From positions 30,662 through 94,661 of the forward strand of contig DUKZ01000002.1 in NCBI GenBank assembly GCA_013329045.1: a DNA stretch of 64,000 nucleotides, read 5' to 3'. The notes beneath the pieces were generated by a model. That model was not told the origin of the DNA, did not search any database, and saw only the letters and a list, made by a program, of their open reading frames with translations. The position numbers and the translations under genes were made by a program. This document shows positions 3,395 to 60,300 of this stretch, piece after piece. How positions within the stretch are numbered: the stretch's first letter is position 1; each line of letters opens with the position of its first letter. Source of the stretch: Candidatus Woesearchaeota archaeon. Lineage in GTDB: Archaea > Nanobdellota > Nanobdellia > Woesearchaeales > UBA9989.

Positions 3395-3931
3395 ATGTTC
3401 AGTAAAAACACACTAAAGGTTATAGAATTTTTCGCTCGTCACCGTACTGAGAAGTTTAACATCAACCAGCTCGCAAGGACGCTAAAGATATCTCCTGGTT
3501 CTTCCCACACAATTCTCAAGGAGCTCGAAGAAAACACGATCGTTCGCTATGAGAAATGGGGCAACCAATTATTCTACCAGCTCAATCTCGAAGACAAGAA
3601 AGCAAGGAAGCTTGTCGAATTGGTCCTCATCATTGACAAAGAGCAAAGGGAGAAGGGCGCATTCAGGGACCTGGAAAAGATTGATGCTGATTGCATCGTT
3701 GTCTTTGACAAGCTCCAGAAATCAACGCTCGCCTTAATCATCGCAGAAAAGATTCTGCATGAGAAGATCAAAGCAAAACTTCCGGCAAATGTTGATCCAA
3801 TCATCCTCACCCTGGATGATGCGAAAGAAAAGTTGCGCTCAAAAGAAAAGACTATTGTCCAGCTGCTCGAATCAGGCATTGTCCTTGAGGGTGAAAACAT
3901 CGTAGTGGAGGTGATGGCCGGTGTTCAATAA
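3395..3931 (+). CDS. Winged-helix DNA-binding protein fused to degenerate minimal nucleotidyltransferase-like domain
   Basis: N-terminal wHTH-like segment (INQLARTLKISPGSSHTILKELEENTIV); overall architecture parallels the wHTH-MNT protein at 25726 but GS...DxD motif not conserved. Confidence 0.45.
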   Translation: MFSKNTLKVIEFFARHRTEKFNINQLARTLKISPGSSHTILKELEENTIVRYEKWGNQLFYQLNLEDKKARKLVELVLIIDKEQREKGAFRDLEKIDADCIVVFDKLQKSTLALIIAEKILHEKIKAKLPANVDPIILTLDDAKEKLRSKEKTIVQLLESGIVLEGENIVVEVMAGVQ

Positions 3932-4385
3932 GCCAATCCTCTGGACAAGTATCTTGTTCCTGATTATCAATCCAGCACTAGGATTTAATCCAAACACTGT
4001 TATGGAAAGCTTGCAAGACCTCATCATTGGCGGCTTTGCAAGGAATCCTGATATCTGGTCGTTCATCGGATTTTTCTTCCTGCTCTTTTCCGCGTTCATC
4101 TTAGCGGGAGGAAAAGCATTCGCTCACTTCCAGAACAAGAACGCTGTCATTGGGATAGCATTCACGCTGGCAGCAATTGGCGCATTAGGGCTAGTCAAGA
4201 TGGGGATAGCAATAGACATCCTCTTCCCCTGGATCAGGAACTTTGTCTATGTATTGCTCTTCATAGTCATCTTTGTCTTCACATCAACGATCATGGGCAA
4301 TGATGCGCCGGTGATAAAGAAAGGAATCGTCGCATTGGTAATTACCTTGTTGCTGGCAATAATAGAGCAGGTGGTGATCGGATGA
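3921..4385 (+). CDS. Polytopic membrane protein, paralog A (154 aa)
   Basis: GTG start 5 nt after GGAGGTGA SD; hydrophobic; shares the motif FIL(A/S)AFILAGGK.FA..NKNA.IG.A......VKMGI.I.FPWI(R/K)NFVYV with the next gene. Confidence 0.55.
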   Translation: MFNKPILWTSILFLIINPALGFNPNTVMESLQDLIIGGFARNPDIWSFIGFFFLLFSAFILAGGKAFAHFQNKNAVIGIAFTLAAIGALGLVKMGIAIDILFPWIRNFVYVLLFIVIFVFTSTIMGNDAPVIKKGIVALVITLLLAIIEQVVIG

Positions 4386-5524
4386 AGAAGAAGACGCTCA
4401 TCATCATCGTGGCAATCTTGTTCATCTGCAGCATAGCAGCTCCAGTTATTGCAGCAAAGATCACCATTGGAAGTGTTGGCGGCGCTTTTGGGAATGTCTT
4501 TACCAAGATGTCCCAGTTCTTTGCCGGCGGCTATGTGAAATTTAAGAAATTGATAGACTTCACTCTCTTTTTCATCCTCTTCCTCTCAGCGTTCATTTTG
4601 GCATTTGGCAAGTTCTTTGCTGACTACCCAAACAAGAATGCCATTATTGGAGTGGCTGTTGGCCTGGCATTGATGGGTTCAATGGTCATGGTCATGAAAG
4701 GTATTGGCATCGAGATGATTTTCCCCTGGATCAAGAATTTTGTGTATGTTATATTGGTGGTTATCATCTTCCAGCTTTTGTCCAATGAGAAACTGCTTGG
4801 CGGCAAGTCATGGTTCTGGAGATTGCTCCTGGCTATCATCATCACCTGGCTGATGTTCGTGCTCGGTGGAAGTCTTGTGAGGGGTGGAGGGGATATTGGA
4901 TCAGCATTGAGCAACCCTTTCAGCATTTTTAGGCCGGGAGCCGGGCCAGCTCCCCAGCTCTCACAGTCGCCCGCAAATGCGCAGGCAGCATTTGTGGAGT
5001 ACAAAGCAAGAGAAGACAAGCTTGCAAAGCAGGCGCAAGAGCTTGCAGCTGCAGTCAGTGGCGGCAGTACAGGGAAGTGTGGTGAACTCAAAAGACTGAC
5101 AGTACAAAAGCAGCAGGTATGTGTTGAACGTGTCTTTGCCCAGGCAGAAGCATATGCAGTCAATGAGCAGCATGACAACGCTGTTTCAGAGTATAATAAT
5201 ATCGGGAAGAACATCCAGTCGATGTGTGCTGACACCTCATTGAACGGTGTCCTTGCATCGAAATGCAACACACAAGTCGGCCTGGAGCTGAGTGCGCAGG
5301 ACTGGAACAAGATAAGCAATCGCTTGACAAGAGAATTGATCGCATATTCATATATTTTGGAAAAGCAGGGGCAGACCCAGCAGGCAATTGCGTTGCTGCA
5401 GCCGTATAGCGGAGCATTCTATTCGCAAAGTTCTCCCCATACAAATTCAGCTACTTTAGGGACTAAGGGAACCGGTGGATCTGCAAATCTGCCTTCAGGC
5501 CCTGCAGAATACCGATCAAAATAG
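4382..5524 (+). CDS. Polytopic membrane protein, paralog B with about 200-aa Cys-containing C-terminal soluble domain
   Basis: ATGA overlap with previous gene; N-terminal half paralogous to 3921-4385 product; C-terminal region hydrophilic with several Cys. Confidence 0.55.
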   Translation: MKKKTLIIIVAILFICSIAAPVIAAKITIGSVGGAFGNVFTKMSQFFAGGYVKFKKLIDFTLFFILFLSAFILAFGKFFADYPNKNAIIGVAVGLALMGSMVMVMKGIGIEMIFPWIKNFVYVILVVIIFQLLSNEKLLGGKSWFWRLLLAIIITWLMFVLGGSLVRGGGDIGSALSNPFSIFRPGAGPAPQLSQSPANAQAAFVEYKAREDKLAKQAQELAAAVSGGSTGKCGELKRLTVQKQQVCVERVFAQAEAYAVNEQHDNAVSEYNNIGKNIQSMCADTSLNGVLASKCNTQVGLELSAQDWNKISNRLTRELIAYSYILEKQGQTQQAIALLQPYSGAFYSQSSPHTNSATLGTKGTGGSANLPSGPAEYRSK

Positions 5525-5525
5525 G

Positions 5526-7868
5526 ATGAGAAACAAAACATTATCCGGACTGTGTCTGTTGATGATAGTGGTACTGCTTTCATCCCCAGTATTTGGCCAG
5601 GCATTAACTGATCGTGCTCAGGGTGATGTCTATACTAATCCTACATTACGCACCCCCCCACCAGTTGATGCACCTGGTGGAGCAGGATATGTATCACCCT
5701 CAGCAATCACTCTCGAGCAGGGTGACAAGAATCAGATTGATCAGCGGCTCAGTGCTTTATACATGAAGGCAGGAGATGAGTTTGTAGCAGCTGGACAGGC
5801 AGGGTTGGCGAATGATATGTATAAGAAGGTAACGGAGGTAGATCCCAATTCTCCCATGGCTCAGCAGAAATATTATGATACGATGGGTGATGTGGCGCCG
5901 GAGGCATCAGAATGCGAGTATCATTGTCAGATCAGGCTTAGGGGCAAACATAAGTGGAAGTGCATCATTCCAGAAGGGAAAAATACGCCAATATGGTTGC
6001 AAATCGACAGCGCAGAGGTAAAAGACCATTTCTACACTGACCCTTACACTTGTACTGTGGGTTCATGGGTGAGAAATCAGGGAGCAGGTGCAGGGAATCA
6101 GACAAGACGGCATCCGTTGGGATTGATGTTAATCATATTATTCATTATAGTGGGGATGTTCCAGAGGGGGAGAATGAATCTTGGCGTTTATGGAAACTGG
6201 CTTCTGGACATTCCTGGAAGATTTAATGCATCAGTGAGAAGAGCCTTTAATTGCCAGACAGTTGGAGAGGCTAAGGTGTTTTTAACTATTAAACCTGTAA
6301 GTATTCCCGGTATGGAATCACGCGCAGGAGAGATTTCAGGAAGGCGTTTAAAGTTCCACGCTCAGACCCCCCAACAAAGTATGAAACCTCATAATGAACC
6401 AAGAATCAGCTCTGTTACATGTTCTGCTGAAGTTAAGGTTCCACTTCATGGTCAATACGAACCGCTCCATAGGTTTCTGCGCGCAGATGAAGAAAGGGTC
6501 CGGAGAGCAATTAGGGGAAGAAGAACAATAGGTGGGAATGGAGGAACAAGCCTTCGGCGTGTAATTGACCATAATAACAGGATTCTCAGAGCCGCATCAG
6601 GCGCATCACCGACTTTATCAACCGATGTGAATGCACTTGAGGCAGCAGTTGAACTTGGCCTGGGACCGGCAACTGATGCCAACCCTCATATATCGCCAAG
6701 AGAGATATCCAGAGTGGTCAACCACGCCGTTGATTTGTTGGATCTGCCTGGAAATCCTAGCTCTCAGATTACACCTGCTGCCTTGCAGGCCGCAGTCGAA
6801 GCCGAAGCACAGAATTTTGCCAGAGAGGGGCATGTTCCAAGGAGACGGGTTATCATGCCAGATACGGATATCCATTTTGGAATTCAGGGTGAAGAAGGTG
6901 CAGGTATCTATTATCGTTCAGACGTCCATTGGGAATTCCTCAACCCTGACGGATCAAACGAAGCGACACCAGGCTCACAGCAAAGACTGTCAGGAACAAG
7001 ATTGAGGAATGTCATTGAGAATACAAGGCATCTTGTTTATCCAGAGGCAGTCCCTCTAAGCGAAGAATCAACTGCCAGGGCAGTCTTTGTCCCCAACTTT
7101 GGAATGGAAGACAAGGAGATCACACTCTCAGCAAGATATGCAAAATATACCGGCACAGCAAACTTATTCATCAGGCAGCATGACACCATCAAAATCAATA
7201 GTTTGTCTGTCGGATCTACTGCTTTACTGGTAGCAAATCCTGCTGAACCGATCTTTGAGATTAGACCAAGCGGCTCTGAGCGTGTCCATGTCCATGTGGA
7301 AGTGACAAACAATAAGACAGAAAAATCGGTGCAAGCGCTCGTTTACTTCAAGGTTGAATCTGGAACGACAACCGATGGGCGGCCTTACATGTTCAACCCC
7401 GGATGGTTTGAGCACGATACCGCCACAACAGCAGTTGGAGGGGGTAAAGTTGGGCAAACAGAAGGTGTATATCTTCTTTCACCGGATAGCAACAGGCTGT
7501 CAAACGTAAGGATCCCGAGGGGATTGGTATTCCCAGCTGATAAAGACGCATGGAATGCTGCTTTCGCGGCCATCGAAGAAGAAAAACGAAAGGATATGGG
7601 GACCTACAGTTCACTAAGCTCTGCACAAAGAAGAGACCTGCTATCATACCTCAACAAAAACAATATTATGGTGAATTTATCAATTGATTATGATGAGTTC
7701 TGGGATAAAGACAAGAACCCATATCACGTCACCCTCATCGCTTATTCAGGTAATATCTCAGAGACTCATGCACATCTCAGGTTCACAAACAAGGGTACTG
7801 GCAGCCAACAGCCGCCAACAACAACGATACGGGTCGCCCCCTACCAGCCCCAAAATAACATACCATGA
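5526..7868 (+). CDS. Large secreted/membrane-anchored protein of unknown function (about 780 aa)
   Basis: Start MRNKTLSGLCLLMIVVLLSSPVFGQA looks like a signal peptide; internal TM segment (LGLMLIILFIIVGMF); alternative upstream in-frame start at 5475 overlaps previous gene. Confidence 0.55.
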   Translation: MRNKTLSGLCLLMIVVLLSSPVFGQALTDRAQGDVYTNPTLRTPPPVDAPGGAGYVSPSAITLEQGDKNQIDQRLSALYMKAGDEFVAAGQAGLANDMYKKVTEVDPNSPMAQQKYYDTMGDVAPEASECEYHCQIRLRGKHKWKCIIPEGKNTPIWLQIDSAEVKDHFYTDPYTCTVGSWVRNQGAGAGNQTRRHPLGLMLIILFIIVGMFQRGRMNLGVYGNWLLDIPGRFNASVRRAFNCQTVGEAKVFLTIKPVSIPGMESRAGEISGRRLKFHAQTPQQSMKPHNEPRISSVTCSAEVKVPLHGQYEPLHRFLRADEERVRRAIRGRRTIGGNGGTSLRRVIDHNNRILRAASGASPTLSTDVNALEAAVELGLGPATDANPHISPREISRVVNHAVDLLDLPGNPSSQITPAALQAAVEAEAQNFAREGHVPRRRVIMPDTDIHFGIQGEEGAGIYYRSDVHWEFLNPDGSNEATPGSQQRLSGTRLRNVIENTRHLVYPEAVPLSEESTARAVFVPNFGMEDKEITLSARYAKYTGTANLFIRQHDTIKINSLSVGSTALLVANPAEPIFEIRPSGSERVHVHVEVTNNKTEKSVQALVYFKVESGTTTDGRPYMFNPGWFEHDTATTAVGGGKVGQTEGVYLLSPDSNRLSNVRIPRGLVFPADKDAWNAAFAAIEEEKRKDMGTYSSLSSAQRRDLLSYLNKNNIMVNLSIDYDEFWDKDKNPYHVTLIAYSGNISETHAHLRFTNKGTGSQQPPTTTIRVAPYQPQNNIP

Positions 7869-9169
7869 GTACGCAAGAGAAAAACGGATCGAGAACCCAG
7901 ATAGCCGGCCCAGAGATATTTATCCTGTCCGAAGGGCAAAACCCAACTGAGGCAAAAGCAGCAATAATCAATCTAAGGGATTTATTGATGAGACGTATCG
8001 CAGGAACAAGAATGCAGGTGACGAATGTTCGCAGAAAAATGCAAGATGCTCCACGACGAGCAGATCACAAACAATTTCAAGAATTAGAAGAAGGCCTGAA
8101 AAAACTCGAAGAAACGTATGAAAAAGAGGCTCCAGAGATACTGCAACGAATGATTACAGCTGCTGAAAAAGGAGAATTTGAAACATGCGTAAGGCTCTAT
8201 GAGTATGATTTACGAGAGGTTATCAATAAGGCAAAGCACGCCGGCCCGGTAATAAATATGGCGTACGCAACAATCGAAAAGCATATGAGAGTATTAGAAA
8301 AGATAAAGAAAAAACAAGATTTAACGACAGAAGACATCAACTACTTAATTGATAATCTTGGTCCTGACCACCCTCATTTATGGGACCATTACCTCCATGC
8401 TGATAATCACCCAAAAACACTTGTCTTTTCAAAGGAGCATAGCTATATGATGGATGCATTTACCATTCATGACAATCGCCCATTGCTTCATCTAAGGGGG
8501 TATCCTGTGGATAGAGGATGGATTGATATAAGAGAAATAAGCCGCTTAGCTGAAAAATTTGCCTCTTTCCAGGATCATGTGGTATTAGCAAACAGGATAA
8601 TCACCATTCACATGCTCCTGGATTTCATCCATCACCATAGGCATGATCATCGTATGGAAAAAGCACTCATCGGAAAATATATTATAAGAAAGGATCATTT
8701 TATGACACCTCAAGAGCAGATGAGGATGCCAGCAAACCTCAATCTGCCGATGATTGATGGGATACAAGAGATGCAAGGCAGGGTAGCATTCCATTTCAGC
8801 GCGGTAAGAGATATGAAAGGCCAGCTACCAATCTGGATTCCTAGCGATGCAAGGATCCTGAACTATGCGATTGCCCTTATCCAGCATGAACAAAGGATTT
8901 TCGAAGAACTCAGCAATGACACAATGGTAGGAATCCAGGGCAAGCGTCTGCACGAAGTGCTTCTCCTCGATAAGCATACAAAGCCAGCATTTGAAGTAGC
9001 TATCAATAATTTAAGAATGTGGTCGGGATCAGGGATCACATTCACAATTGAAAAAGAGCGCATCATGAGATGGATGAAACAGTATTTCCTCATTGACCAT
9101 GCAGCAGTTGATGCGAGGGCAGCACAACATGGTGAACAAATGGTCGAAGAGCATCGGAGGGCAGCTTGA
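7865..9169 (+). CDS. Hypothetical His-rich protein (434 aa)
   Basis: ATGA overlap with upstream gene stop; His-dense segment (HPHLWDHYLHADNHP...HHHRHDH) suggests possible metal binding; no known motif recognised. Confidence 0.5.
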   Translation: MSTQEKNGSRTQIAGPEIFILSEGQNPTEAKAAIINLRDLLMRRIAGTRMQVTNVRRKMQDAPRRADHKQFQELEEGLKKLEETYEKEAPEILQRMITAAEKGEFETCVRLYEYDLREVINKAKHAGPVINMAYATIEKHMRVLEKIKKKQDLTTEDINYLIDNLGPDHPHLWDHYLHADNHPKTLVFSKEHSYMMDAFTIHDNRPLLHLRGYPVDRGWIDIREISRLAEKFASFQDHVVLANRIITIHMLLDFIHHHRHDHRMEKALIGKYIIRKDHFMTPQEQMRMPANLNLPMIDGIQEMQGRVAFHFSAVRDMKGQLPIWIPSDARILNYAIALIQHEQRIFEELSNDTMVGIQGKRLHEVLLLDKHTKPAFEVAINNLRMWSGSGITFTIEKERIMRWMKQYFLIDHAAVDARAAQHGEQMVEEHRRAA

Positions 9170-10212
9170 CTGAGTGGCAGCCATCGGGAAGAGAACCCCC
9201 CTTTCTCTTGATTGGTACGAACAGGATAGAACTGACGCAAACAAGGACTGGTGTCAACGGATTTAGTGAATTAGGAGCCAGTCTCCCTGGTGGAGGGGTT
9301 ACTCTACCGGTGACAATCGATACATCAACAATGATAGACGTCAGGGTGAGAGGGTTTGTTTTCCATTCTGAAATAGGTCCTTATGCATTGTCCCGTCTCG
9401 GTACATCTGGTGCATTCGCCCATCAGGCGACATTCCAAATTGTTCCAGGGACAGATCTTTTTTTGAATCTTATTCCATGCGGAAAAATAAAGGGGGTGGT
9501 CTTTAACGCATCAAACAGAAAAACACCAGTTCCTTTGGGAAACGTTAAACTCAGAACCACCGAACGCCAAGGAGGAAGGAGGGGGGCAGTGGTATTTGAT
9601 GAGGTCATCACTAATGCTAAGGGTGAATATGAGCTTTATGTTGATCCATGGAAAAGTTACGATGTTTTGATTGATAGGACGACACACCCAGGAGATCTTC
9701 ATCCATTGTCGTCAGGAGGTATGATTGATCATAATGCATCGTTCTCATCAGAAAGCCACGTTGAGGACAATCAGCAAGCGATTCTTAATCGAGGTCCAAG
9801 AACAGCAGGGAGTGGTTGGTCAATCAAATCAGGTAACGAAGAAACCTTTAATATTTATCTCTTCCCTGCAAGTGTGCCGGTCATCACCCACCTCAATGCA
9901 GGATCAGGCGATGTGAACAATGGTTCACTTGTGGTTGAAGTCGACTCTGCCCTGGGAACAGTTGTAACGATTCAAGTGAAAGGCCACTCCTTCAAAAATC
10001 ATACTGGTTTTCAGGTAGTGAGTGGAATCAAAGTGGATTCAAGATGGTTCCCCTATACCAATGATTCTGACACTAATGGAACATTAACTATTGACTCGAC
10101 TGCTACTGAGGGTGAGTATTGGCTCATTTTAAGGAATCATATCGGGGAGGGTAGTAATCTGACGATAGCAGGAGCACCATATCATTTCACCATTAAAAAA
10201 AAAACACCATGA
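9166..10212 (+). CDS. Hypothetical beta-rich protein, possible carboxypeptidase-regulatory-like (CarbopepD_reg) domain
   Basis: TTG start overlapping upstream stop (cTTGA); segment GKIKGVVFNASNRKTPVPLGNVKL...AKGEYELYV resembles CarbopepD_reg beta-sandwich pattern. Confidence 0.4.
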   Translation: MTEWQPSGREPPFLLIGTNRIELTQTRTGVNGFSELGASLPGGGVTLPVTIDTSTMIDVRVRGFVFHSEIGPYALSRLGTSGAFAHQATFQIVPGTDLFLNLIPCGKIKGVVFNASNRKTPVPLGNVKLRTTERQGGRRGAVVFDEVITNAKGEYELYVDPWKSYDVLIDRTTHPGDLHPLSSGGMIDHNASFSSESHVEDNQQAILNRGPRTAGSGWSIKSGNEETFNIYLFPASVPVITHLNAGSGDVNNGSLVVEVDSALGTVVTIQVKGHSFKNHTGFQVVSGIKVDSRWFPYTNDSDTNGTLTIDSTATEGEYWLILRNHIGEGSNLTIAGAPYHFTIKKKTP

Positions 10213-11609
10213 TCCATGAATGTCCGATCCCAAAAATTAAAGATTTAGAATTCGTATATGATTCTGGAGAGTTTATTGGCCGTGCAGTAAGTAGAATTAA
10301 ACGAGGATCGATAAAATTAGATACGATTATTGAGCGGAATCGGGAACTCGAGGCTCTTCGGCAGATCATTAGTCAATATTTGCAAATCAACAATACCATC
10401 TTACCACCAGCAATACCAAGTGGTCGTTGGCCCTGGGAGCAAGCAGTAAGCGCAGTTAACACAAGGGCCCCTCCGGGATCTTATCTTGAAGAATTATGGA
10501 AAATGAATATTGGTCAATTATTGGATTATTTAGACCAGGTATCTAGAGAGATCCAAGCAGCATGGGAACCCATGACCAAAGAAACTAAACGGGCAATTGG
10601 GTTTGTAAGGACAGACAAGGATTGGCCATCAGGATATGGAAGAATGAGAAATCTTGCTTTTATTTCTAAGAATCATGGGCAAAAGTTGATCCAGATTCTA
10701 GCAAAGATACGGGGAACTAGTACTGGAAGCGAGAATACTGATTTTATATATGCTGCTTCAATCTGGCATCAATTATGGACATTATTTGCATTTGGGATAT
10801 GGCGTATAAATAAGATTAGGGAGGTATTCTGTGAAGAACTCGTCCATGGTGGAGCGCCTCCCCCCAAAATTCTTCAACCCAGCACCGTGGAGCTATCACC
10901 CTCAATCCCAACAATTCCTCTTTCCCCCGTAGATTCAGGTGATGATGAATGGACAACTATACTAAAGAGCGGTGGGAGGATACCAATAAGGGATGGGTTA
11001 CATGGCAGCAAATCAGATAGAAAATTCTATTTTCCTCAGGGAGCATGGATGAACTTCCCGGGAGAGCAGCCTGGCCTTGACACAGGTTGGAAGTTTCACA
11101 TCCTCACTGAATCTAGCGATGAACTCCTAGCACTTGGCCGTGTTCTCATACCTTTCTTTTGTTCTGAGGGATGGAACTTCAAAACAGCCGTGTCAATAGA
11201 TAAATTCAATGAATTTTTTGGTGATGAGGCAAACAAGCAGTTCGGCAAAGGGTTTGTTGTCTATATCGATGCCCCTAACCCTGCAGATATTGCAGAGGTG
11301 AAAACCATTGCTCACTCGATGAGGGAGAAGATAATCAAAAAGATTCAAGAAAGCGGTGTCGGCAAGCCAAAACATGAGGTAAAAGGAGACGCTCCTGTCC
11401 CAGGCGATCTGACTGGAAGGCTCTATCACAGATATGAGTTCACTTCGCCGGGGAGAGAGAAAAAGTATGAAGGGAACTACAGAAAAAATGATGGTAAACA
11501 TTATAATATCGAAGAAAATGAGGATATCTTTGAGGGTATTAATCATGAAAGATATCCATTAATTAGGGTATGGTTTTCACCTCCCAAGAACTGGATGGCA
11601 AGACCATAA
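10209..11609 (+). CDS. Hypothetical protein (466 aa)
   Basis: ATGA overlap with upstream stop; long ORF, no recognisable motif. Confidence 0.5.
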   Translation: MIHECPIPKIKDLEFVYDSGEFIGRAVSRIKRGSIKLDTIIERNRELEALRQIISQYLQINNTILPPAIPSGRWPWEQAVSAVNTRAPPGSYLEELWKMNIGQLLDYLDQVSREIQAAWEPMTKETKRAIGFVRTDKDWPSGYGRMRNLAFISKNHGQKLIQILAKIRGTSTGSENTDFIYAASIWHQLWTLFAFGIWRINKIREVFCEELVHGGAPPPKILQPSTVELSPSIPTIPLSPVDSGDDEWTTILKSGGRIPIRDGLHGSKSDRKFYFPQGAWMNFPGEQPGLDTGWKFHILTESSDELLALGRVLIPFFCSEGWNFKTAVSIDKFNEFFGDEANKQFGKGFVVYIDAPNPADIAEVKTIAHSMREKIIKKIQESGVGKPKHEVKGDAPVPGDLTGRLYHRYEFTSPGREKKYEGNYRKNDGKHYNIEENEDIFEGINHERYPLIRVWFSPPKNWMARP

Positions 11610-11635
11610 AAAGTATTAAAAAGGTGAAAAAGTAG

Positions 11636-12235
11636 GTGAGTAGAATGAAAGGAAGAATTATCCTCTACATGGGCATAACAGCAATCCCTTCCGTCTTTGC
11701 CTTCACTCCCCTGGCGATTGCCGGTGCTGGTGCTGGAGGCATTGGCGTATTGGTGGGCATTGCCTACCTCATTGCAAGAAGGAGCACGAAATCAAGAAAG
11801 CTTTCTGCTGACACTTCCCGCATGGATGACCATGGGAGAAGGTCGAGGCACTTGTCTCATGCTGCTGCAAAGGCAGCACAGACCGCTGCCGTTGACCCGA
11901 GGCAGGCTTCTTCCCTTGCAACAACATTGCAGGCCCAGATCACTCAATTCAACCAGATGGCTGCTTTGTTTGATAGGATGTATCACGAGGCAAACAATGT
12001 GCTGACAAGGAATCCTCAGTTGAGAAGTAGGTATAGCAGGCAGCTGGCGTTCATCACAGAAGGAAGAAGAAAGATCACTGATGCTCAAAAAATCATTCGT
12101 GATGCCCACACAGCCCTCTCGAAAAGAGAATACAATAGGTGCCAATCATTAACCCGGCAGCTCCAGAATTCCTGGCTCGTCAGTAATTGGGGTAAGGTAG
12201 AAAGTGCGTGTCGCGACATTGCAAATGCAAGATAG
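11636..12235 (+). CDS. N-terminally membrane-anchored helical protein (199 aa)
   Basis: Hydrophobic N-terminus (ILYMGITAIPSVFAFTPLAIAGAGAGGIGVLVGIAYLIA) followed by basic then helical Q/R-rich region; GGTGAG SD-like upstream. Confidence 0.45.
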   Translation: MSRMKGRIILYMGITAIPSVFAFTPLAIAGAGAGGIGVLVGIAYLIARRSTKSRKLSADTSRMDDHGRRSRHLSHAAAKAAQTAAVDPRQASSLATTLQAQITQFNQMAALFDRMYHEANNVLTRNPQLRSRYSRQLAFITEGRRKITDAQKIIRDAHTALSKREYNRCQSLTRQLQNSWLVSNWGKVESACRDIANAR

Positions 12236-12294
12236 AGAACCATAATGCTTAAATATGTTCAAAGTGAGAGGAAAAGAAAGGAGAAGGTGAGACA

Positions 12295-13266
12295 ATGATC
12301 ACAGGCTATCGGAGAAACGCATTTAGTTCACATCACTTAATTCGGCAGCTGCGCCATATCTGTTTTCGGCTCAGTGCTGATTTCAAGAATGAAAAAGGGG
12401 ACGAGCACAGGGTTATCACCGAGCTGGGGGATATGAAGGAGCAAGCGGCCGTCCTTTACACAAATAAGGATGCAAAGAAGAAGCAGGAAGCCTTGGAGAG
12501 ATTGAAGAGGAAGGCAAAGGATGATGAGAATGATTTTGCAGCGTTTGGCAAGGAGGTAGATGAGATTGCCCTCTTGATCAACCAGGCAGAAAAGGGTCTG
12601 GCAGCGATCATCTATCGGGAAAACGTCGAGATTGTCACAAAGAACAGAAGATTAGATGAGTTGATCGCACAGCACGAGATTCCCCCTCACCTCGCTCAGC
12701 AGGTAAAAGAGGCGCTCAGGGGGGTCTATGAAGATCTAAAAGGGATGGAAAGTGGCCAAAGAAAACACGCACGAAAGGCTGCAAGGGGCAAAGGATTTAT
12801 CATGTTCTCTTTTGTTAGTGATGGAAGGACTGCAAGGATTGTCAGGAAGGAAGGCCGCATCCTTGAAAATCTCGATGTGGAATATGGCAAAGAAGAAACT
12901 ATCCTTGAGATGGATATCCAGAAGCATGACATCCAGGGCATCCTAGACGTATATAATGCGATAATCCATATTCTTCAGAAAGAAGTCGACGAGGAAGGTG
13001 ACATGTTTGATTATCTAGACAGGGAGTTCCAGGATGACAAGAAGGATCTCGACAAGGTTTCTCAGATGCTGATGCGTGCGATGGGTGATGGGAACATCAA
13101 GCATTTCAGCGACCAGAATTCCCCGCAGGAGTTGAAGGAATTATGGAAGACATTGGAAACGTCCCGGGTGAATCTCAATAATGTCAGAGCCCACGTGACA
13201 AAGATCGGAAATGAAGCATACCGTAGAGCTCGCGCGGAAAGAAAGGAAGAAAAATTAGCTGCATAA
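12295..13266 (+). CDS. Hypothetical coiled-coil protein (323 aa)
   Basis: GGAGAAGGTGAGACA-ATG SD context; E/K-rich helical composition. Confidence 0.5.
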   Translation: MITGYRRNAFSSHHLIRQLRHICFRLSADFKNEKGDEHRVITELGDMKEQAAVLYTNKDAKKKQEALERLKRKAKDDENDFAAFGKEVDEIALLINQAEKGLAAIIYRENVEIVTKNRRLDELIAQHEIPPHLAQQVKEALRGVYEDLKGMESGQRKHARKAARGKGFIMFSFVSDGRTARIVRKEGRILENLDVEYGKEETILEMDIQKHDIQGILDVYNAIIHILQKEVDEEGDMFDYLDREFQDDKKDLDKVSQMLMRAMGDGNIKHFSDQNSPQELKELWKTLETSRVNLNNVRAHVTKIGNEAYRRARAERKEEKLAA

Positions 13267-22197: not shown

Positions 22198-22677
22198 ATG
22201 CAAAAAGCCTTTAAGGATACTCCCTTAGTTGAGATATCACTTCGCAAGTATGAGCGGCCTGAAGGGCTGGAAGGAAGGGAGTTAGTAAAAAAACTATGTC
22301 TCTCTGTTGGTCTGCTCCAGCCAGGCGATTCCAGAGATGTTGTCGTTGATGTGCTCCATTCTCTTCTCATTGCAAGGCGCCAGCACCTCTTATTGTCATC
22401 AGAAGAGATAAAAGATAGGGTGATCAAGCTTCGGGAACAAAGCAATCTTCCTATGGTAGGGATTGCATCGTCAAACATCAGAAGACAGCTTTTGCGCCTC
22501 AGGAATATCTTCCTTGTGGAGAAAGTAAAGAATAATTACAGGATCAACGAGCATGCAACGCTAGGAGAGATATTCAATGAGAAGATCGAGAAATTCCTCC
22601 TCCCTTCTATTCTTGCAAGGGTAAAAGAGTATCTCTCAACGGTTGATAAAGAGTTTTCTGACATGACAAAAGGGTAG
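22198..22677 (+). CDS. Hypothetical protein, possible winged-helix regulator (159 aa)
   Basis: Leaderless-like start 22 bp after CCTATATATACT TATA-like element; helical with basic wing-like C-terminal segment; converges on the GlnD-like gene with 1-nt gap. Confidence 0.35.
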   Translation: MQKAFKDTPLVEISLRKYERPEGLEGRELVKKLCLSVGLLQPGDSRDVVVDVLHSLLIARRQHLLLSSEEIKDRVIKLREQSNLPMVGIASSNIRRQLLRLRNIFLVEKVKNNYRINEHATLGEIFNEKIEKFLLPSILARVKEYLSTVDKEFSDMTKG

Positions 22678-22678
22678 T

Positions 22679-25402
22679 TTAGCGCTCCCGCTTCCCTTCA
22701 AGTATTCGTTCTAATCCATGAATCTGCGCAGAAGAAAGCTTCTCGCCCTTATAGCTGATGAGGAACGTATCAGAGACGCTATTGCCATGATATGTTGTAA
22801 AGCTTGCCTCTTCGATTGAATGGTTTTTTCCCCGTTGTGAGAGCAGGTGCACAAGCGACAAAGCAAGCCCGCGTTGGTCTTTTCCTTTGACGACAACGAC
22901 AGTGTAGGGCAGCTCATCGTAATTCTTGACTGAATAGTTGGTGATGGGAAAGCGCGGCATTTCCTCATCATTTTCTCTGAAATATGCATCGACTGATGAT
23001 GCTCCAGAGATCGCATGATAGCGTTGATTCGTTCGGGCAACCAGATCATCCGAAATCACCCCGTCAGGATGGGACACCAAAAACTGGTCGATCACAAGAG
23101 TTTTTCCATCGAATTTTCCGGTGAATGCATTCGCATTGTCGACGTCAAAGCCTTCAAGGTAGAGGGAAGCGAGCAGTTGTTCGAGGAGGCCATGGCGGTC
23201 TCCTTCCTCAATGAGTGTCATAAATTGACGGTCTGACGTTGATGTTGACTTGAAGATGATAGGAGAGGTGTACGCTTGGGCGTGTTTGAGGTGTGCAGCG
23301 ATAGTGGTGTTGGATAAAGAAAGGATGTATTCATCTCCCATCTGTTCACAGAAGGATTGCGCGGCTGCCTCATCAACCCCAGCCATCCTTCCGATAGTTG
23401 TGTGCCGTCGTGTAATGTCAGGTGCAGGCACGCCGGCGCCAAAGGCTTCCTGGATAAAATTATAATGCCGCGAAAATTTTCGTTGCATCTCGACATTGAG
23501 CCCTTCTATCCCATGAGCATTCTCCCAGCAAAAGTGCATGATGAGCCCATCAGTGATCCTTATCTCATCATTCCCAAACTCTGCCATGAGGCGTCTTGCA
23601 ATGTCCCAGGTAGGATCTGGGAATTCTGTGAGATATCGTTTGATGATGTTGTGGTCTGCATCAGTCTGTTCAACACGGGCAATGATATCATCAGGAAGTC
23701 CTAGTGCACCAAGGTCCTGTCTTGCAAGCGCTGCTCCTCTCTCTTCATGCCCTGCAAGGCCAAGATGGAGCGATGCATTCCGGTAGATGGTCGATAACGC
23801 TCCAACAAGCATCGTCTCTGGGGGGATGAATGATTCCGCGCCAAGCACTTTTTGAGCTGCAGTGTCAAGATATTCCAAGGAATCAAGGGCAAACTCTCCA
23901 ATCGTTCTTCCTCCATCGCCAAGGTAGGGTGAATCAAAGGATGCCTCAACGCCAGGGAAAAGATATGCAAGCATCGGTGTTCCATTATCTGATCTGCTGG
24001 AATGCAATGTCCGGACCATTCGAACAAATTGTGCTGGATCCTGAGCTGCTTCAAGCAGGTGATTCAGGCGGACTTTTCCTGGAACATGCAGGGAATCGAT
24101 GACCAAAACTGTATCTCCAAGCTGTGCTGATTCTCTTAGGGGATAAAGAAAGCTTCGTGTTCTGAGTGTCATCCCCCCATCTGGAGGGATCGGACAGATA
24201 AAAGAGCCGCCTTTGCTGTCAGGGAGAAATGTCCCTCGCGAGGTTATGCCATCAATAGTCGATGTAGTATATGCTTGGATGGTCCGCGCAAGTTCGATCA
24301 CATGATCAGCAAGGGACCGATGCGAAGGAAATCCAAGTTCCCGTGCTCTCTGAGATCCGATAGGCCCTTCATTCCCAAGCAGTGCAAGGTCAGTGTCCAG
24401 GCTCCTGAGCAGTACGGCTGCATGATAAGCTCTCTCTTTGAGGGGAGAAGGGAGAAGGGGAGGATTTCCAATCAGGTGATCAATGATTTCCAGGTCAGAA
24501 ACAAGAGTGTATGCTTTTGATCCCCACCTGCTTTTTTTATATTCACCGCAAAGCGGGTCGTAAAGCAGATCCTGGGGTGCTTCTGAGGAATTGCCTGAAA
24601 TGTTTCTGAGAAGATTGACAAGTTGGAAATGGTGTGCGATAAGTTTCATGAGCTCAAAGCGGTTTCGTGACGACTCTTCAGGTGAGGCAAGGGGAACACC
24701 ATGCGATGTTGCAAGCTCGCAGAGCATCTCAAATTTGCTCTGTTCGAGTGCTGCATATCCTCTGGCAAGACCTGCCATGCTTTCATTGCCCGCCATCCCG
24801 CCTCTTCTCTGATGCTGGGACCCATCATCATGGAGTGCTGAGATTGCATGATAACTAGGAGTCCATCCATGATAGGTGGTCACATCAGATGGAGAAATAA
24901 AAGAGAATGGGTGGTGGTTGACATCACTGTGCTGGACAACCCTTCGCACACGCTCGCCGCCCTCCTTGAAGAAATCTAGAAAGTATCGAAAGTCTTTGTA
25001 GGGTGATGCTGTCTCCAGGCACTCAAAGATTGGCCCGGGCATCACAACGACTATATCTGCATCAGAGACAAGTGTTCCAATGTTTCTAGACAAGCTCCCT
25101 CCAATGCCCATATACATCCCATTGAACTCATCAGGTGATGCCCTGCCTGCAAGCAGGAATTCCATGATTGATCCAAGGATGTCCCGGGTCATGCTATACA
25201 TGCCAGCAGAGAGCGTGATGAGCGGTTCGGGAGAAAATGGATTATTCGAGCGTGCGTTGGTGTATTGCTGGCTCAGATGGGAAAAACGTTCTTGACCCTT
25301 TTCCCAGAGCGACTGTGCAAAACCCGCGGCAAAGTCATCGACGCCAAGCATCTCTTGCCAGGTCTTCCTTCTGTTCCCCTCAACTGGTCCAGTTTCACTC
25401 AT
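22679..25402 (-). CDS. GlnD-like multidomain protein: nucleotidyltransferase - degenerate HD-like - ACT - ACT (907 aa)
   Basis: NTase motif GIGGSLSRNIGTLVSDADIVVV (G[GS]x9-13DxD); two C-terminal ACT-like beta-alpha-beta-beta-alpha-beta units (AFTGKFDGKTLVIDQFLVSH..., TVVVVKGKDQRGLALSLVHLLS...); central LHLGLAGHEERGAALARQDLGALGL resembles GlnD HD region but HD dyad is replaced. Confidence 0.45.
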   Translation of the reverse strand: MSETGPVEGNRRKTWQEMLGVDDFAAGFAQSLWEKGQERFSHLSQQYTNARSNNPFSPEPLITLSAGMYSMTRDILGSIMEFLLAGRASPDEFNGMYMGIGGSLSRNIGTLVSDADIVVVMPGPIFECLETASPYKDFRYFLDFFKEGGERVRRVVQHSDVNHHPFSFISPSDVTTYHGWTPSYHAISALHDDGSQHQRRGGMAGNESMAGLARGYAALEQSKFEMLCELATSHGVPLASPEESSRNRFELMKLIAHHFQLVNLLRNISGNSSEAPQDLLYDPLCGEYKKSRWGSKAYTLVSDLEIIDHLIGNPPLLPSPLKERAYHAAVLLRSLDTDLALLGNEGPIGSQRARELGFPSHRSLADHVIELARTIQAYTTSTIDGITSRGTFLPDSKGGSFICPIPPDGGMTLRTRSFLYPLRESAQLGDTVLVIDSLHVPGKVRLNHLLEAAQDPAQFVRMVRTLHSSRSDNGTPMLAYLFPGVEASFDSPYLGDGGRTIGEFALDSLEYLDTAAQKVLGAESFIPPETMLVGALSTIYRNASLHLGLAGHEERGAALARQDLGALGLPDDIIARVEQTDADHNIIKRYLTEFPDPTWDIARRLMAEFGNDEIRITDGLIMHFCWENAHGIEGLNVEMQRKFSRHYNFIQEAFGAGVPAPDITRRHTTIGRMAGVDEAAAQSFCEQMGDEYILSLSNTTIAAHLKHAQAYTSPIIFKSTSTSDRQFMTLIEEGDRHGLLEQLLASLYLEGFDVDNANAFTGKFDGKTLVIDQFLVSHPDGVISDDLVARTNQRYHAISGASSVDAYFRENDEEMPRFPITNYSVKNYDELPYTVVVVKGKDQRGLALSLVHLLSQRGKNHSIEEASFTTYHGNSVSDTFLISYKGEKLSSAQIHGLERILEGKRER

Positions 25403-25725: not shown

Positions 25726-26349
25726 ATGAGACAAAAAACACTACTAAAGATTATTGGGTTAATGAGGAAAGGATTGGGCAAAGGACTGACAATATTAGAA
25801 ATATCAAAACAGCTAAAAATTGGGTATAGACCGGCATATAACCATATAACTGAAATGGAAAAAGAGGGAATTATTGAAATAGAAAAAATAGGCAGTTCTA
25901 AACAATGTAAACTCAATCTTGCTAGTCCTCAAACTAGACATTTACTCGAATCTTTAGATCTTACAAGAAAAAAAGAAATATATCAGCAGAATCCAAAATT
26001 AAAAACAGTTATTGAAAGTTTAATCTCTAAGCTTACAGAAAAATTTATCTCAGAGGTACACTCCATAGTCTTATTTGGAAGCTATGCAAAAGGCACAGCA
26101 ACAAAACAATCTGATATTGATTTAATGTTTATAGTATGTGATTTAAAGAATAAGAACATAAGAGGATCTATAGAGCGAGAATGTGCAAGTTATGAATACT
26201 CATACAACATCAGAGTAAGCCCATTAATCTCAGATATTGGAGAATTGAAGAACATGTTAAAGGCAAAAGAATTAAATGTGGGAAAAGAAGCTAAGGAATA
26301 TGGCATTTCCCTATATGGTCATGAGATGTTTTGGAGGATTATCACATGA
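25726..26349 (+). CDS. wHTH-fused minimal nucleotidyltransferase (MNT-type antitoxin-like)
   Basis: N-terminal wHTH (LTILEISKQLKIGYRPAYNHITEMEKEGII); NTase motif LFGSYAKGTATKQSDIDLMFIV (GS...DxD). Confidence 0.7.
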   Translation: MRQKTLLKIIGLMRKGLGKGLTILEISKQLKIGYRPAYNHITEMEKEGIIEIEKIGSSKQCKLNLASPQTRHLLESLDLTRKKEIYQQNPKLKTVIESLISKLTEKFISEVHSIVLFGSYAKGTATKQSDIDLMFIVCDLKNKNIRGSIERECASYEYSYNIRVSPLISDIGELKNMLKAKELNVGKEAKEYGISLYGHEMFWRIIT

Positions 26350-26888
26350 AAGATAGAAATGAACTCCTAAAAAGAAAGATAAATGGATATCTGAAGAAAG
26401 AGCAGTTTTTCAAAAATGATGAGCATAAAAAGCAAGAAAAGCCATTTATAGCGAAATCTAGAAAGAATTTTACTGTTGCTAAACTCCTCTTTAAGATTTC
26501 AGAAGAAGAAGACATGAGACGAATTCTTAACCTCGCTTCTGGTTTCGAAATGGATGATTGGGCGATTATAGTTTCATATTATTCAATGTACACTTCCAGC
26601 TTATCTGCATTAGCAAATCTTGGCTTTAAGTCAAAAAGCCATGCGGCAACAATTGCAGTTTTAGAGTATAACTTTGCCAAAGACAAAAAGCTCGAAACAA
26701 AGGATATTCATAAGCTTGTAAAAGCATGTGCCTTAAGTGAACAGTTGATAACAAAACTTATCCAGACAAAAACAAAGAGAGAAACTGCTCAATATGATGC
26801 CACTTCCTCAATCACAAGAGAAATGGCTAAATCTTCATTAGATGATGCTGATGAGTTCATAACCAAAATTGAGGAGATGTTAAGTTAG
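26331..26888 (+). CDS. HEPN-domain protein (putative toxin partner of MNT)
   Basis: Overlaps MNT gene end by 19 nt; helical; typical HEPN/MNT gene pairing; candidate Rx4-6H-like region around KSKSHAATI. Confidence 0.5.
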   Translation: MEDYHMKDRNELLKRKINGYLKKEQFFKNDEHKKQEKPFIAKSRKNFTVAKLLFKISEEEDMRRILNLASGFEMDDWAIIVSYYSMYTSSLSALANLGFKSKSHAATIAVLEYNFAKDKKLETKDIHKLVKACALSEQLITKLIQTKTKRETAQYDATSSITREMAKSSLDDADEFITKIEEMLS

Positions 26889-50649: not shown

Positions 50650-50982
50650 TTATGCCTTTATTTTTTCAATCTGCTTCTTTAATTTCGGCAAATCACCCTT
50701 GGCAATATCCCAGATGATATCCAGGTCAACGCTGAAGTACTGATGGATAATCTTATCCCTTGTTCCCGCAATCTCTTTCCAGGGAATGCCCGGATATCTC
50801 TCTGTGAGAGTTGATGGAAGCATCTTTACTGCCTCACCGATGATTTCCAGGCTTCTGATGACCGCATTCTGCTTTTCTTTATCTCCAAAGAATTCTGCCC
50901 GTGCCACTCCGTCCATGAATATTTCTATGTCTTGAATATTCTCAAGTATGTGCTGGATAAAGAAGAGTGAGTCTTTTTTCAT
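50650..50982 (-). CDS. hepT: HepT-like HEPN toxin (DUF86)
   Basis: C-terminal RDKIIHQY = Rx4HxY motif; 110 aa; 4-nt overlap with upstream MntA gene. Confidence 0.7.
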   Translation of the reverse strand: MKKDSLFFIQHILENIQDIEIFMDGVARAEFFGDKEKQNAVIRSLEIIGEAVKMLPSTLTERYPGIPWKEIAGTRDKIIHQYFSVDLDIIWDIAKGDLPKLKKQIEKIKA

Positions 50983-51428
50983 AGAATTCTCACCTCTTCC
51001 TTAAGAATTTTGTCACGAAGGCGGGGATGGATATATTTGTATGTCACAACGTCAACTTTCTCCTTGAGGGCATCTTCAAGTTCTCTTTGAAGACGGACAA
51101 AGCCATAACCCATGCCTTTTGGTGGTTCGATGAGGATATCAATATCACTTCCTTTTTTTCTTTCTCCACGAGCAGTGCTACCAAATATCCCTGCTTTTCT
51201 CACATTATTCTTGATCAACACCTTCCTGATTAAGGGGGTAATCCTTTCGAGTTCCTTGTTTCTTTTAAGTTTACTATCAGCCAACTTTTCTTTCAAAGAT
51301 AATTCCTGCGGTGTCAGATTTGAGCCCAGGTACATGCGTTTTTTCATCACAGACTGCCCTTCCCTTATAGAGATGACTCGATAATAATAACTCTGTTCAT
51401 TTCTTCGTTTAATCTCAGTATAGGCCAT
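50979..51428 (-). CDS. mntA: MntA-type nucleotidyltransferase antitoxin
   Basis: GIFGSTARGERKKGSDIDILIE (GS...DxD). Confidence 0.7.
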   Translation of the reverse strand: MAYTEIKRRNEQSYYYRVISIREGQSVMKKRMYLGSNLTPQELSLKEKLADSKLKRNKELERITPLIRKVLIKNNVRKAGIFGSTARGERKKGSDIDILIEPPKGMGYGFVRLQRELEDALKEKVDVVTYKYIHPRLRDKILKEEVRIL

Positions 51429-51485
51429 AGAGGAATGTACGTCTACATTTTATTTAAATCTTTCTATGTGGACGTATAGAAAAAA

Positions 51486-51588
51486 GCCCCCGGCGAGAGT
51501 TGAACTCGCGACCTGCTGATTGCCTGCTAATGGCTACAAGTTTCAGCTCATAGAGAACAGCCGCTATAGCCACTAAGCCACGGGGGCA
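51486..51588 (-). tRNA. Intron-containing tRNA (about 30-nt intron), isotype not confidently assigned
   Basis: Acceptor GCCCCCG/CGGGGGC, D-loop with GG, T-arm GCGAG-TTCAACT-CTCGC, anticodon stem GCTG(T)/(T)CAGC separated by about 30 nt; U discriminator; followed by T6 tract; anticodon UCU possible only with atypical C33. Confidence 0.6.
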
Positions 51589-55821: not shown

Positions 55822-56535
55822 CTAATACCTTCCCCCAAGATACACGCTTTTTATTTTTTTGTGGGTGATCATTTCCCTGCCTCCTTCCAGCACCACCTTC
55901 CCTTCCTCAAGGAGGTATGTCCGGTCTGCGATTTCAATCGCTTTCTTTGCATTCTGTTCGACAATAATGATAGCTATTCCATCTGCCCGCAGGGAGTTGA
56001 TCATCGTAAAAGCTTCTTTCTGAAGTTTTGGCGATAGGCCAAGCGATGGTTCATCAAGGAGGAGGAGCGCTGGCTCTCTCATGAGAGCCCGTCCAAGGGC
56101 GAGCATTTGTTGCTGGCCGCCAGAGAGGGTATACGCCGGTTTTTCTCTTTTTTCCCGGAGTGCAGGGAATTTGTGGAAGACAAATGAGAGGTTTTTTGTG
56201 AGCAAAGCCTTGTCTTGCCCGGCAGGTGCCCCGATCTCCAGGTTTTCAAGAACGCTGAGGCTTGGAAAGTTTATTTTTCCTTGCGGGACATATGAAATAC
56301 CAAGGCCAACAAGGTCGCTTGTCTTCATCTTGGTGATCTTTTTTTCTTTGAATGTGATCATCCCCCGTGCAATATGTGTTAGGCCAAAGACTGATTTGAT
56401 GACGGTGCTTTTTCCAGCGCCATTAGGGCCGATGAGAGCCACGATCTCTGCTGGCCCGATATGGAGTGATACCTCTTGCAATACTTCCAATTCTCCATAT
56501 CCGGCAGTAAGGTTTTGTATCTCAAGCATTGTCAA
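55822..56535 (-). CDS. livF: Branched-chain amino acid ABC transporter ATP-binding protein (LivF-like)
   Basis: Walker A GPNGAGKST, signature LSGGQQQM, Walker B LLLDEPS. Confidence 0.85.
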   Translation of the reverse strand: MTMLEIQNLTAGYGELEVLQEVSLHIGPAEIVALIGPNGAGKSTVIKSVFGLTHIARGMITFKEKKITKMKTSDLVGLGISYVPQGKINFPSLSVLENLEIGAPAGQDKALLTKNLSFVFHKFPALREKREKPAYTLSGGQQQMLALGRALMREPALLLLDEPSLGLSPKLQKEAFTMINSLRADGIAIIIVEQNAKKAIEIADRTYLLEEGKVVLEGGREMITHKKIKSVYLGGRY

Positions 56536-57260
56536 TCACCAAGGTATGCCTCGAGCACTTTTTCATTGTCTTGGATCTGCCGTGGCAGCCCTTCTGCAAT
56601 GATTGTCCCTGCATCAAGGACATATACCTTATCCGCAAGGTCCATCACAAAATTCATATCATGCTCTATAAGGAGGATCGTATCGCCCTTGGCAGCAAGA
56701 GCGCGGATGATTCCCTTGATCTGCTGGCGAAGCTTTGGATTTACCCCGGCTACTGGTTCATCGAGCATGAGCAGGGAATGGGGCTTTGCAATGGCAACAG
56801 CCAGATCCAGGAGCTTTCGCTGTCCATAGGAGAGATCAGATGCATATGTCTGAGGGGGCTTGTCTAGCCCGACAAGTTCTAGCACTTGTTTTATTCTCTT
56901 GGGCTGGTCTTTTCTTGTGCGAAAGAAATTTCTGAGTAAGGTTTCGTCATTTGTGGATAAAGCGATTGCCACATGGTCATGGATGGAGAGGTTTTTGAAG
57001 AGCCTCACCTGCTGGAATGTCCTGGATATTCCCTGTCTGGCGATGAGGTAGTCAGGTTTTCGTGTCACGTCTTTTCCCTGGAATGAGATAGTGCCCTTAT
57101 CGATGGGCACAATGCCTGAGATGACATTAAAGAGTGTTGTCTTTCCAGAGCCATTAGGGCCAATGAGTGCAGTAATCTTCCCACTGTCTACCATAAGTGA
57201 ACATCCGGCAAGGGCTGCAACACCGCCAAAATTTTTATGGACTTTTGTGATTCGCATCAT
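56532..57260 (-). CDS. livG: Branched-chain amino acid ABC transporter ATP-binding protein (LivG-like)
   Basis: Walker A GPNGSGKTT, LSYGQRKLL, LMLDEPVAG. Confidence 0.85.
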   Translation of the reverse strand: MMRITKVHKNFGGVAALAGCSLMVDSGKITALIGPNGSGKTTLFNVISGIVPIDKGTISFQGKDVTRKPDYLIARQGISRTFQQVRLFKNLSIHDHVAIALSTNDETLLRNFFRTRKDQPKRIKQVLELVGLDKPPQTYASDLSYGQRKLLDLAVAIAKPHSLLMLDEPVAGVNPKLRQQIKGIIRALAAKGDTILLIEHDMNFVMDLADKVYVLDAGTIIAEGLPRQIQDNEKVLEAYLGD

Positions 57261-59003: not shown

Positions 59004-59039
59004 CGTTTCCTCAATAAAAAAAGATAAAAGAATAAAAAA

Positions 59040-60164: not shown

Positions 60165-60300
60165 GTTCACCCTCCCAAGTTCAAACAAAAAACGCAAACA
60201 GCAATTTTTTGTATCTAGTTAGTGATTAATTTCTGACAAGTAAGAACTCCTGGTAATATATAGTTTTAGCTAATATTATATATATCATATAAATAATTCA

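Follow-up and report, generated by a model that had tools for sequence, protein, structure and literature searches.

A near-orphan GlnD-like protein with a degenerate HD region in a Woesearchaeota archaeon

GlnD, the PII uridylyltransferase, is ubiquitous in Proteobacteria and Actinobacteria and sporadic in other bacteria, and PII is its only known substrate; its nucleotidyltransferase (NTase) domain is the uridylyltransferase and its HD domain the uridylyl-removing enzyme, both under regulation by glutamine (Merrick, 2015, PMC4285133). For archaea, PMC3831643 cites a report of PII uridylylation in a haloarchaeon. An open reading frame (ORF) of 907 codons in a Candidatus Woesearchaeota archaeon (contig DUKZ01000002.1; the stretch analysed, 64,000 nucleotides long, is called the window below) raises the question of how much of GlnD is present in this protein and what such a protein could still do. 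A first, sequence-only reading had taken the product for a GlnD-like protein with an NTase motif, a central HD region lacking its dyad and two ACT domains, possibly a transferase-only signalling enzyme. That interpretation was largely right, and it overstated the share of the architecture that can be demonstrated. The protein should best be called GlnD-like, since it fails the GlnD score cut-off and lacks both PF08335 and the HD residues. With a probability of about 0.5, it is a hyper-divergent, lineage-restricted GlnD derivative, namely an amino-acid-gated, transferase-only nucleotidylyltransferase whose target is possibly not PII.

GlnD homology at the C-terminus and the degenerate HD region

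The evidence for GlnD ancestry declines from the C-terminus toward the N-terminus. The protein was compared with a reference alignment (A2) of 14 diverse GlnDs from Gamma-, Beta- and Alphaproteobacteria, Campylobacterota and Actinomycetota, which share 24-64% identity with E. coli GlnD; GlnD residue numbers below follow the E. coli protein, and all shuffle tests preserved composition. Against A2, hhalign gives a probability of 97.1% and E=6e-11 over 321 columns and places residues 551-893 on E. coli GlnD 522-871, a span that takes in the ACT pair (ACT1 and ACT2), the GlnD linker before it and the HD domain in its second half. Identity to GlnD is about 19% even within this aligned part, and against the first GlnD collections, which were enterobacterial only and shared no less than 88% identity with the E. 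coli protein, the hhalign probability was 28%. Four NCBIfam models match the protein, all of them GlnD equivalog models and all in the C-terminus; the best, TIGR01693, aligns residues 676-899 with positions 615-843 of its 850 (E=3.5e-11, 42.1 bits), a match limited to these residues that does not reach the equivalog cut-off of 519.4 bits. BLASTP pairs residues 672-781 with E. coli GlnD 651-759 at 27% identity (E=1e-6). Tested segment by segment, the linker with ACT1 (669-800) scores 55 (z=18 against shuffles) and ACT2 (800-907) scores 36 (z=10), while for the second half of the HD domain (540-668) none of 150 shuffles matches the score obtained with the GlnD HD profile (z=4.1). Together, these profile comparisons show the last ~360 residues to be homologous to GlnD specifically.

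The two C-terminal ACT domains of the sequence-only reading are thus borne out by TIGR01693, by hhalign against the 14 GlnDs and by the segment scores, and a GlnD-type linker precedes them. ACT1 contains a DRHGLL loop and ACT2 a DQRGLA loop; ACT2 has kept the residues A, T, D and F that are invariant in this domain of GlnD, the two domains cross-match each other, and the low-confidence AlphaFold2 model of the protein shows a beta-alpha-beta-beta-alpha pattern in ACT2. They are assigned as ACT domains because GlnD-specific profiles (NCBIfam, hhalign) match them, whereas the generic Pfam profile PF01842 has no match in the protein even at E<=10.

In the HD-like domain, only the second half (residues 551-660) is demonstrably homologous to GlnD; the first half alone is not significant against the GlnD profile (32 of 200 shuffles), so that the alignment of the central region with the GlnD HD region, originally made by eye, is supported for one half and not for the other. 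The string quoted there, LHLGLAGHEERG, corresponds to residues 545-556, and low-stringency hhalign and MAFFT alike place S-L-H546-L547 on GlnD L-F-H514-D515, in agreement with the claimed replacement of the dyad. Three invariant or near-invariant HD residues are retained in the mapping from A2, H514 (as H546), H524 (as H552) and G528 (as G556). Among the others, H464 and D469 both become G, H471 becomes F, D515 L547, D523 G551 and D597 W626; K518 falls in a gap, and the stretch from H556 to D567 (the HLLMS..RRD segment) is deleted, leaving a gap of 15 residues. These assignments are provisional upstream of residue 551, posterior confidence being high only from there on. None of the alignments restores the dyad, and the sole HD dipeptide in the protein, H191-D192, lies far from the HD-homologous region. 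PF01966, the Pfam HD family, matches neither the whole protein nor its segments, and the H...HD...D set of metal-binding residues of GlnD is not intact. As far as these alignments reach, they show no intact HD catalytic site, the dyad and most other invariants being gone, and since HD carries the uridylyl-removing activity in GlnD, this activity is unlikely in the archaeal protein.

The putative nucleotidyltransferase core and the middle region

The Pol-beta-type NTase motif proposed for the N-terminal part comprises GIGGS at residues 99-103 and SDAD at 113-116. The signature hG[GS]x9-13Dh[DE]h has a single match in the protein, IGGSLSRNIGTLVSDADI (residues 100-117), at the position equivalent to that in GlnD; shuffled sequences contain a match anywhere in 3.1% of cases and at residues 70-130 in 0.19%, and a stricter expression with flanking hydrophobic strands is found in 0.24%. 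Across the window (30,176 residues in stop-free stretches of at least 100 codons), the signature has two other matches, and it is regarded as specific because both matches are true, Pfam-confirmed minimal nucleotidyltransferases (MNTs). Candidates for the carboxylate triad are D114, D116 and D173, the last within SDVTT.

A collinear hhalign alignment sets SDADIVVV of the protein on SDIDLLIL of GlnD with posteriors of 0.6-0.9, and 8 of the 13 invariant or near-invariant GlnD residues in this core are kept (G93, R97, S104, D105, D107, D133, D155 and T157), with A91, G96, W132, R166 and G170 lost. Residues 102-155 align with GlnD 92-144 at a score of 18.6, which 5 of 200 shuffles reach in a search restricted to the NTase region (p ~0.025). 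When residues 1-200 were compared with 24,736 Pfam families, the sole match was PF01909 (NTP_transf_2) at 100-127, with E=0.19 and 12.6 bits against a cut-off of 21. Weak BLASTP matches to individual GlnDs are all collinear, those in the NTase and HD regions included, and one to Neisseria GlnD covers the NTase motif. Relative to E. coli GlnD, the anchors are likewise collinear, at offsets of +9 for NTase, +32 for HD and +21 for ACT. Thus the residues of a GlnD-type Pol-beta NTase, GG..R..SDxD and a third Asp, are present with marginal profile support, and an NTase core is likely when the signature is seen together with the collinear offsets and with the homology that is secure for the C-terminus. 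The residues before it (1-90) match no Pfam family.

Between this core and the HD-like domain, GlnD ancestry is not detectable. GlnD_UR_UTase (PF08335) is the defining domain of GlnD and GlnE. It spans residues 193-331 of E. coli GlnD, where A2 has E216, P217, K220, G224, R227 and D228 invariant, and the motif EPNIK..GGLRD occurs in all 14 sequences. Pfam finds no PF08335 in the archaeal protein, and the motif is absent: a gap lies opposite E216, P217 and K220, while A stands for R227 and R for D228. Compared with the GlnD_UR_UTase region, residues 180-340 are matched in score by 175 of 200 shuffles, and residues 330-470 compared with GlnD by 90 of 200; hhalign places an insertion relative to GlnD at about 389-447. 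Across residues 178-545 (~370 residues), similarity to no family was detected, GlnD_UR_UTase included. The assertion that the architecture is that of PII uridylyltransferase hence holds for the C-terminal 360 residues and for the position of the NTase signature; it does not extend to GlnD_UR_UTase, which is undetectable, and for the NTase the profile support is marginal.

In AlphaFold2 runs without homologues, the predicted local distance difference test score (pLDDT) averaged 38.7 over the whole protein and 53.3 over residues 1-200. This failure is ascribed to the lack of homologues, and at such low confidence fold matches of the models are meaningless. The GlnD profile itself finds in the PDB only A-adding enzyme, the ACT domains of RelA, and GlnE (3k7d), and we know of no solved GlnD structure. 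Two alignment procedures had their own limits: the '-glob' option of hhalign did not act as global alignment, and the MAFFT alignment of the protein with enteric GlnDs, in which the NTase motif is wrongly placed, was left out of the modelling. The A2 sequences were drawn from chromosomes filed as plasmids in PLSDB. Such 'plasmid' records, which are whole bacterial chromosomes (e.g. NZ_OL790811.1, 4.08 Mb, and NZ_AP026896.1, 4.94 Mb), are a data-quality caveat for plasmid searches.

The gene, its relatives and its surroundings

The ORF list of the window gives the reading frame as uninterrupted from ATG to stop. An exact-sequence look-up finds identical protein records (KHO47910.1, HIH38574.1, HIJ02778.1 and MBS3129271.1), annotated solely as 'hypothetical protein' and carrying the organism names archaeon GW2011_AR4 or Candidatus Woesearchaeota (DPANN); 14 contigs from several samples carry it, the longest of 138.6 kb, and they stem from NCBI, JGI, ENA and Logan. 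A candidate TATA box lies at such a distance from the ATG that the archaeal transcript would have no leader or a very short one, which would support the annotated start (Table 1). Base and amino-acid composition resemble those of several adjacent genes. In the 90% cluster, all seven members are the same sequence or its fragments, apart from two exceptions: an ENA copy has an in-frame deletion of five residues (193-197, DGSQH) together with Q198K, and a partial copy mismatches at 18 positions at its C-terminal end (residues 581-598), which is read as a contig-end frameshift. The deletion polymorphism marks residues 193-197 as a presumably dispensable loop. A second contig (L001) differs from the window at 8 of 7,232 bases; with diversity near nil both here and in the cluster, selection analysis is impossible. 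The gene is real, given its 907 stop-free codons, TATA-like box, neighbour-like composition, occurrence on 14 contigs and in-frame variant. The host is archaeal, as had been proposed: the window encodes a thermosome, CDC48 and two tRNAs with introns, and the protein records are from Woesearchaeota. A literature search on GW2011_AR4 found nothing.

Relatives are nearly lacking. Pfam has no match to the whole protein at E<=10 and none above threshold for five segments, phmmer of the whole protein against PDB sequences gives none at E<=10, and no PADLOC family matches. In 5.8 billion clusters, a word-index search with the whole protein returned a truncated copy of it as the sole match. An exhaustive phmmer search with residues 1-680 against 1.84 billion representatives (of ~15 billion proteins) found no homologue beyond the protein's own copy; a tandem-repeat protein that it also matched was discarded as spurious on inspection. 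A scan of 185,579 species genomes likewise revealed no relative. The word-index search with residues 640-907 (268 aa) gave none at E<=10, a result that is uninformative, as it missed the identical copy too; negatives of word-index protein searches are unreliable for short or divergent queries.

Table 1. Features of the GlnD-like gene and of its neighbourhood, in window coordinates
Feature	Residues	Position	Strand	Basis or remark
Complete gene, 907-aa protein	1-907	22679..25402	minus	ORF list, exact protein look-up; stop codon 22679-22681
TATA-box-like TTTATAA		25426..25432	minus	by eye from the sequence; 24-30 nt (~27) 5′ of the ATG
N-terminal helical region	1-90	25133..25402	minus	AlphaFold2, single sequence: helices 23-53 and 59-84, pLDDT 72-85
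Putative Pol-beta-type NTase core	95-177	24872..25120	minus	regular expression and shuffles, hhalign, weak PF01909 match
NTase signature	100-117	25052-25105	minus	single match in the protein
Region in place of GlnD_UR_UTase and middle domains	178-470	23993..24871	minus	shuffle tests; no Pfam match
Deletion in the ENA copy	193-197	24812-24826	minus	
Degenerate HD-like domain	~471-660	23423..23992	minus	hhalign, MAFFT, segment test
Position of the HD dyad	546-547	23762-23767	minus	low-stringency hhalign, MAFFT
Second half of the HD-like domain	551-660	23423-23752	minus	
GlnD-type linker and ACT1 (ACT1 ~725-790)	669-790	23033..23398	minus	BLASTP, hhalign, segment test
ACT2	832-900	22703..22909	minus	hhalign, segment test
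Nine consecutive ORFs (154-797 aa)		3395-13266	plus	no Pfam match
Dus		ends 19643	minus	
PGM		ends 19758	plus	
159-aa orphan		22198-22677	plus	no Pfam or PADLOC match
MNT/HEPN pair		25726-26888	plus	
GatD		32477-33811	plus	
GatE		34190-35602	plus	
Second MNT-type NTase		50979-51428	minus	Pfam Polbeta / NTP_transf_2
Intron-containing tRNA (103 nt)		51485-51587	minus	found by Rfam, missed by ARAGORN
Branched-chain amino-acid ABC importer, five genes		55822-60197	minus	Peripla_BP_6, two permeases, two ATPases
Ser/Thr protein kinase, 531 aa		61238-62833	minus	

The gene stands alone. In a region of ~84 kb (the window with its 10-kb flanks), E. coli GlnK and AmtB had no match as tblastn queries, the positive control having worked, and Pfam found no PII, Amt or glutamine synthetase among some 50 window ORFs and the flanks. 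The archaeal Glu-tRNA(Gln) amidotransferase GatDE constitutes a glutamine/asparagine-consuming step in a region otherwise without nitrogen-assimilation genes. A branched-chain amino-acid ABC importer lies further along, beside a Ser/Thr protein kinase.

Directly upstream, and separated from the gene by a promoter region of 323 bp, lies a divergent pair of an MNT (winged helix-turn-helix plus NTase; 25726-26349) and a HEPN protein, with a GC content of 0.31-0.34 against about 0.45 for the window; the pair matches the PADLOC candidate systems PDC-S09 and PDC-M05A/B and probably represents a mobile module, either toxin-antitoxin or defence. The second MNT-type NTase of the window adjoins the intron-containing tRNA. 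On the other side, a 159-aa orphan, present on 38 contigs, is convergent with the gene and ends 1 nt from its stop codon. Also in the neighbourhood are genes for NUDIX, Dus, PGM, Lrp/AsnC and endonuclease V; the convergent PGM and Dus genes share 116 nt at their 3′ ends, an overlap that is called on the independent contig L001 as well. A run of nine same-strand ORFs has the appearance of a large, operon-like cluster of genes specific to the lineage, with more unannotated genes upstream (contig L098, 4292-10004).

Readings of the protein and their meaning

If the protein is a GlnD derivative of the kind proposed, it would have kept the order of the parts of GlnD: N-terminal helices, then a Pol-beta NTase core and a long middle that is not recognisable, followed by a helical domain of HD type, a linker and the two ACT domains. 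By binding an amino acid, which in GlnD is glutamine, the ACT domains would control the transferase at the N-terminus; this in turn would attach a nucleoside monophosphate to a protein target, maybe not PII. The HD domain would no longer remove this mark and would serve only as a structural or regulatory spacer; the switch would therefore be one-way and transferase-only.

Several points weigh against this proposal. When the hhalign search is left unrestricted (residues 1-550 against GlnD 1-520), 7 of 60 shuffles equal the NTase score, and profile support for the NTase core is marginal altogether. No confident structure is predicted, and the AlphaFold2 models are too poor for fold comparison. 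The HD assignments upstream of residue 551, where posterior confidence is low, are uncertain, and the HD region is rich in H, D and E (e.g. DADH at 581-584), so that an alternative site could be imagined there. Finally, the loss of GlnD_UR_UTase may mean that the transferase, too, is inactive or works differently. On the other side, the two findings that the sequence-only reading had named as refuting it were looked for, and neither an unrelated family claiming the N-terminal or central regions nor an intact HD site was found.

The same losses bear on the rival explanations. If both catalytic centres were dead, the protein would be no more than an ACT-based sensor of amino acids or a scaffold, signalling through partner binding and not through nucleotidylylation, which would fit the loss of the HD catalytic residues, the undetectable GlnD_UR_UTase with the invariant K220, R227 and D228 absent, the loss of G96, W132, R166 and G170 from the NTase region and the failure of Pfam to recognise any domain. 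However, the G, R, S-D-x-D, D and S-D-x-T of the NTase are identical to those of GlnD although the N-terminal 550 residues are otherwise near-erased, as would be expected if the active site were selected, and the signature is improbable by chance at its place; such a pseudo-enzyme is somewhat unlikely. Alternatively, the N-terminus may have no relation to GlnD, a GlnD-derived C-terminal module (half HD plus ACT-ACT) being joined to ~540 residues of a novel fold in which the NTase motif arose by chance. Total length and anchor offsets collinear with E. coli GlnD, a signature that shuffles place at the collinear position so rarely, and the coincidence of the only Pfam match, PF01909, and the weak Neisseria GlnD match on the same motif make this chimera improbable, even though residues 1-550 are without significant profile similarity in the unrestricted search, residues 1-680 are without homologue among the 1.84 billion representatives and AlphaFold2 draws a helix over residues 90-111 (pLDDT ~62-68) in a model of low confidence.

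Decay, in which the gene would be a functionless remnant of a bacterial glnD taken up by horizontal transfer, is quite improbable. Sequence that had drifted neutrally to this degree would hold stop codons, but the frame is open over 907 codons; a promoter-like element precedes it, the sole indel is in frame and the conserved residues cluster at functional motifs. What speaks for decay is the extreme divergence and the restriction to a single population, together with the reduced genomes of such hosts, which may be without a PII system (none was found in 84 kb). That the protein is a canonical bifunctional GlnD is very improbable: the overall domain order and the best family matches, all of them GlnD, agree with it, but the HD dyad and its partners are lost, PF08335 is absent, TIGR01693 gives 42 bits where 519 are required, and no PII or AmtB is encoded nearby. 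The transferase-only reading also has a more specific form, in which the GlnD chassis has been repurposed as an amino-acid-gated, irreversible nucleotidylyltransferase for a non-PII target in a genome without PII, Amt or glutamine synthetase, residues 178-470 being a new substrate-binding region in place of GlnD_UR_UTase. In this form the proposal is unlikely; if it held, the protein might, for example, couple levels of imported amino acids, for which the window has the ABC importer and GatDE, to the control of a host-dependent process.

Compared with bacterial GlnD, the protein is similar in length (907 vs 890 aa) and in the collinear order of its anchors, has an NTase signature with the invariant G, R, S, D and D, and is homologous in the second half of HD, the linker and the two ACT domains. 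It differs in having no detectable GlnD_UR_UTase and no HD catalytic residues, in the 15-residue deletion in HD and the insertion at ~389-447, in its archaeal (DPANN) host, in the absence of PII and AmtB from ~84 kb and in scoring far below every equivalog cut-off. Unlike actinobacterial glnD, which forms an amtB-glnK-glnD operon (PMC4285133), the gene has no PII or AmtB nearby. Point and domain mutants of GlnD in HD that lack the uridylyl-removing activity (PMC4285133) offer a close parallel, as they combine NTase and ACT with an inactive HD, and transferase-only action would be expected here as well; those mutants are laboratory variants of an otherwise normal GlnD acting on PII, whereas this protein is natural and its accessory domain is unrecognisable too. 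With the MNTs (PF01909/PF18765) it shares the signature hG[GS]x9-13Dh[DE]h, but these are proteins of 100-200 aa, paired with HEPN, that pass the Pfam thresholds, whereas its N-terminus reaches 12.6 bits within a multidomain protein of 907 aa. GlnE and RelA/SpoT, amino-acid or nitrogen signalling proteins built of NTase, HD or ACT domains, are relatives of the GlnD domains. GlnE has two NTase modules and neither HD nor ACT, and in RelA/SpoT the HD domain comes first; the protein was rejected as a member of either family, since its domain order differs and it matches neither.

As the protein is known from one uncultured population, tests need heterologous expression, and there is no direct route to its function without biochemistry. 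If the transferase-only reading is true, this natural GlnD derivative in an archaeon of reduced genome would be evidence that the architecture of GlnD can be redirected to another target and to signalling in one direction: its eraser site is destroyed, sequence that cannot be recognised stands in place of the accessory transferase domain, and there may be no PII for it to modify. It would also exemplify how extreme divergence can yield a near-orphan.

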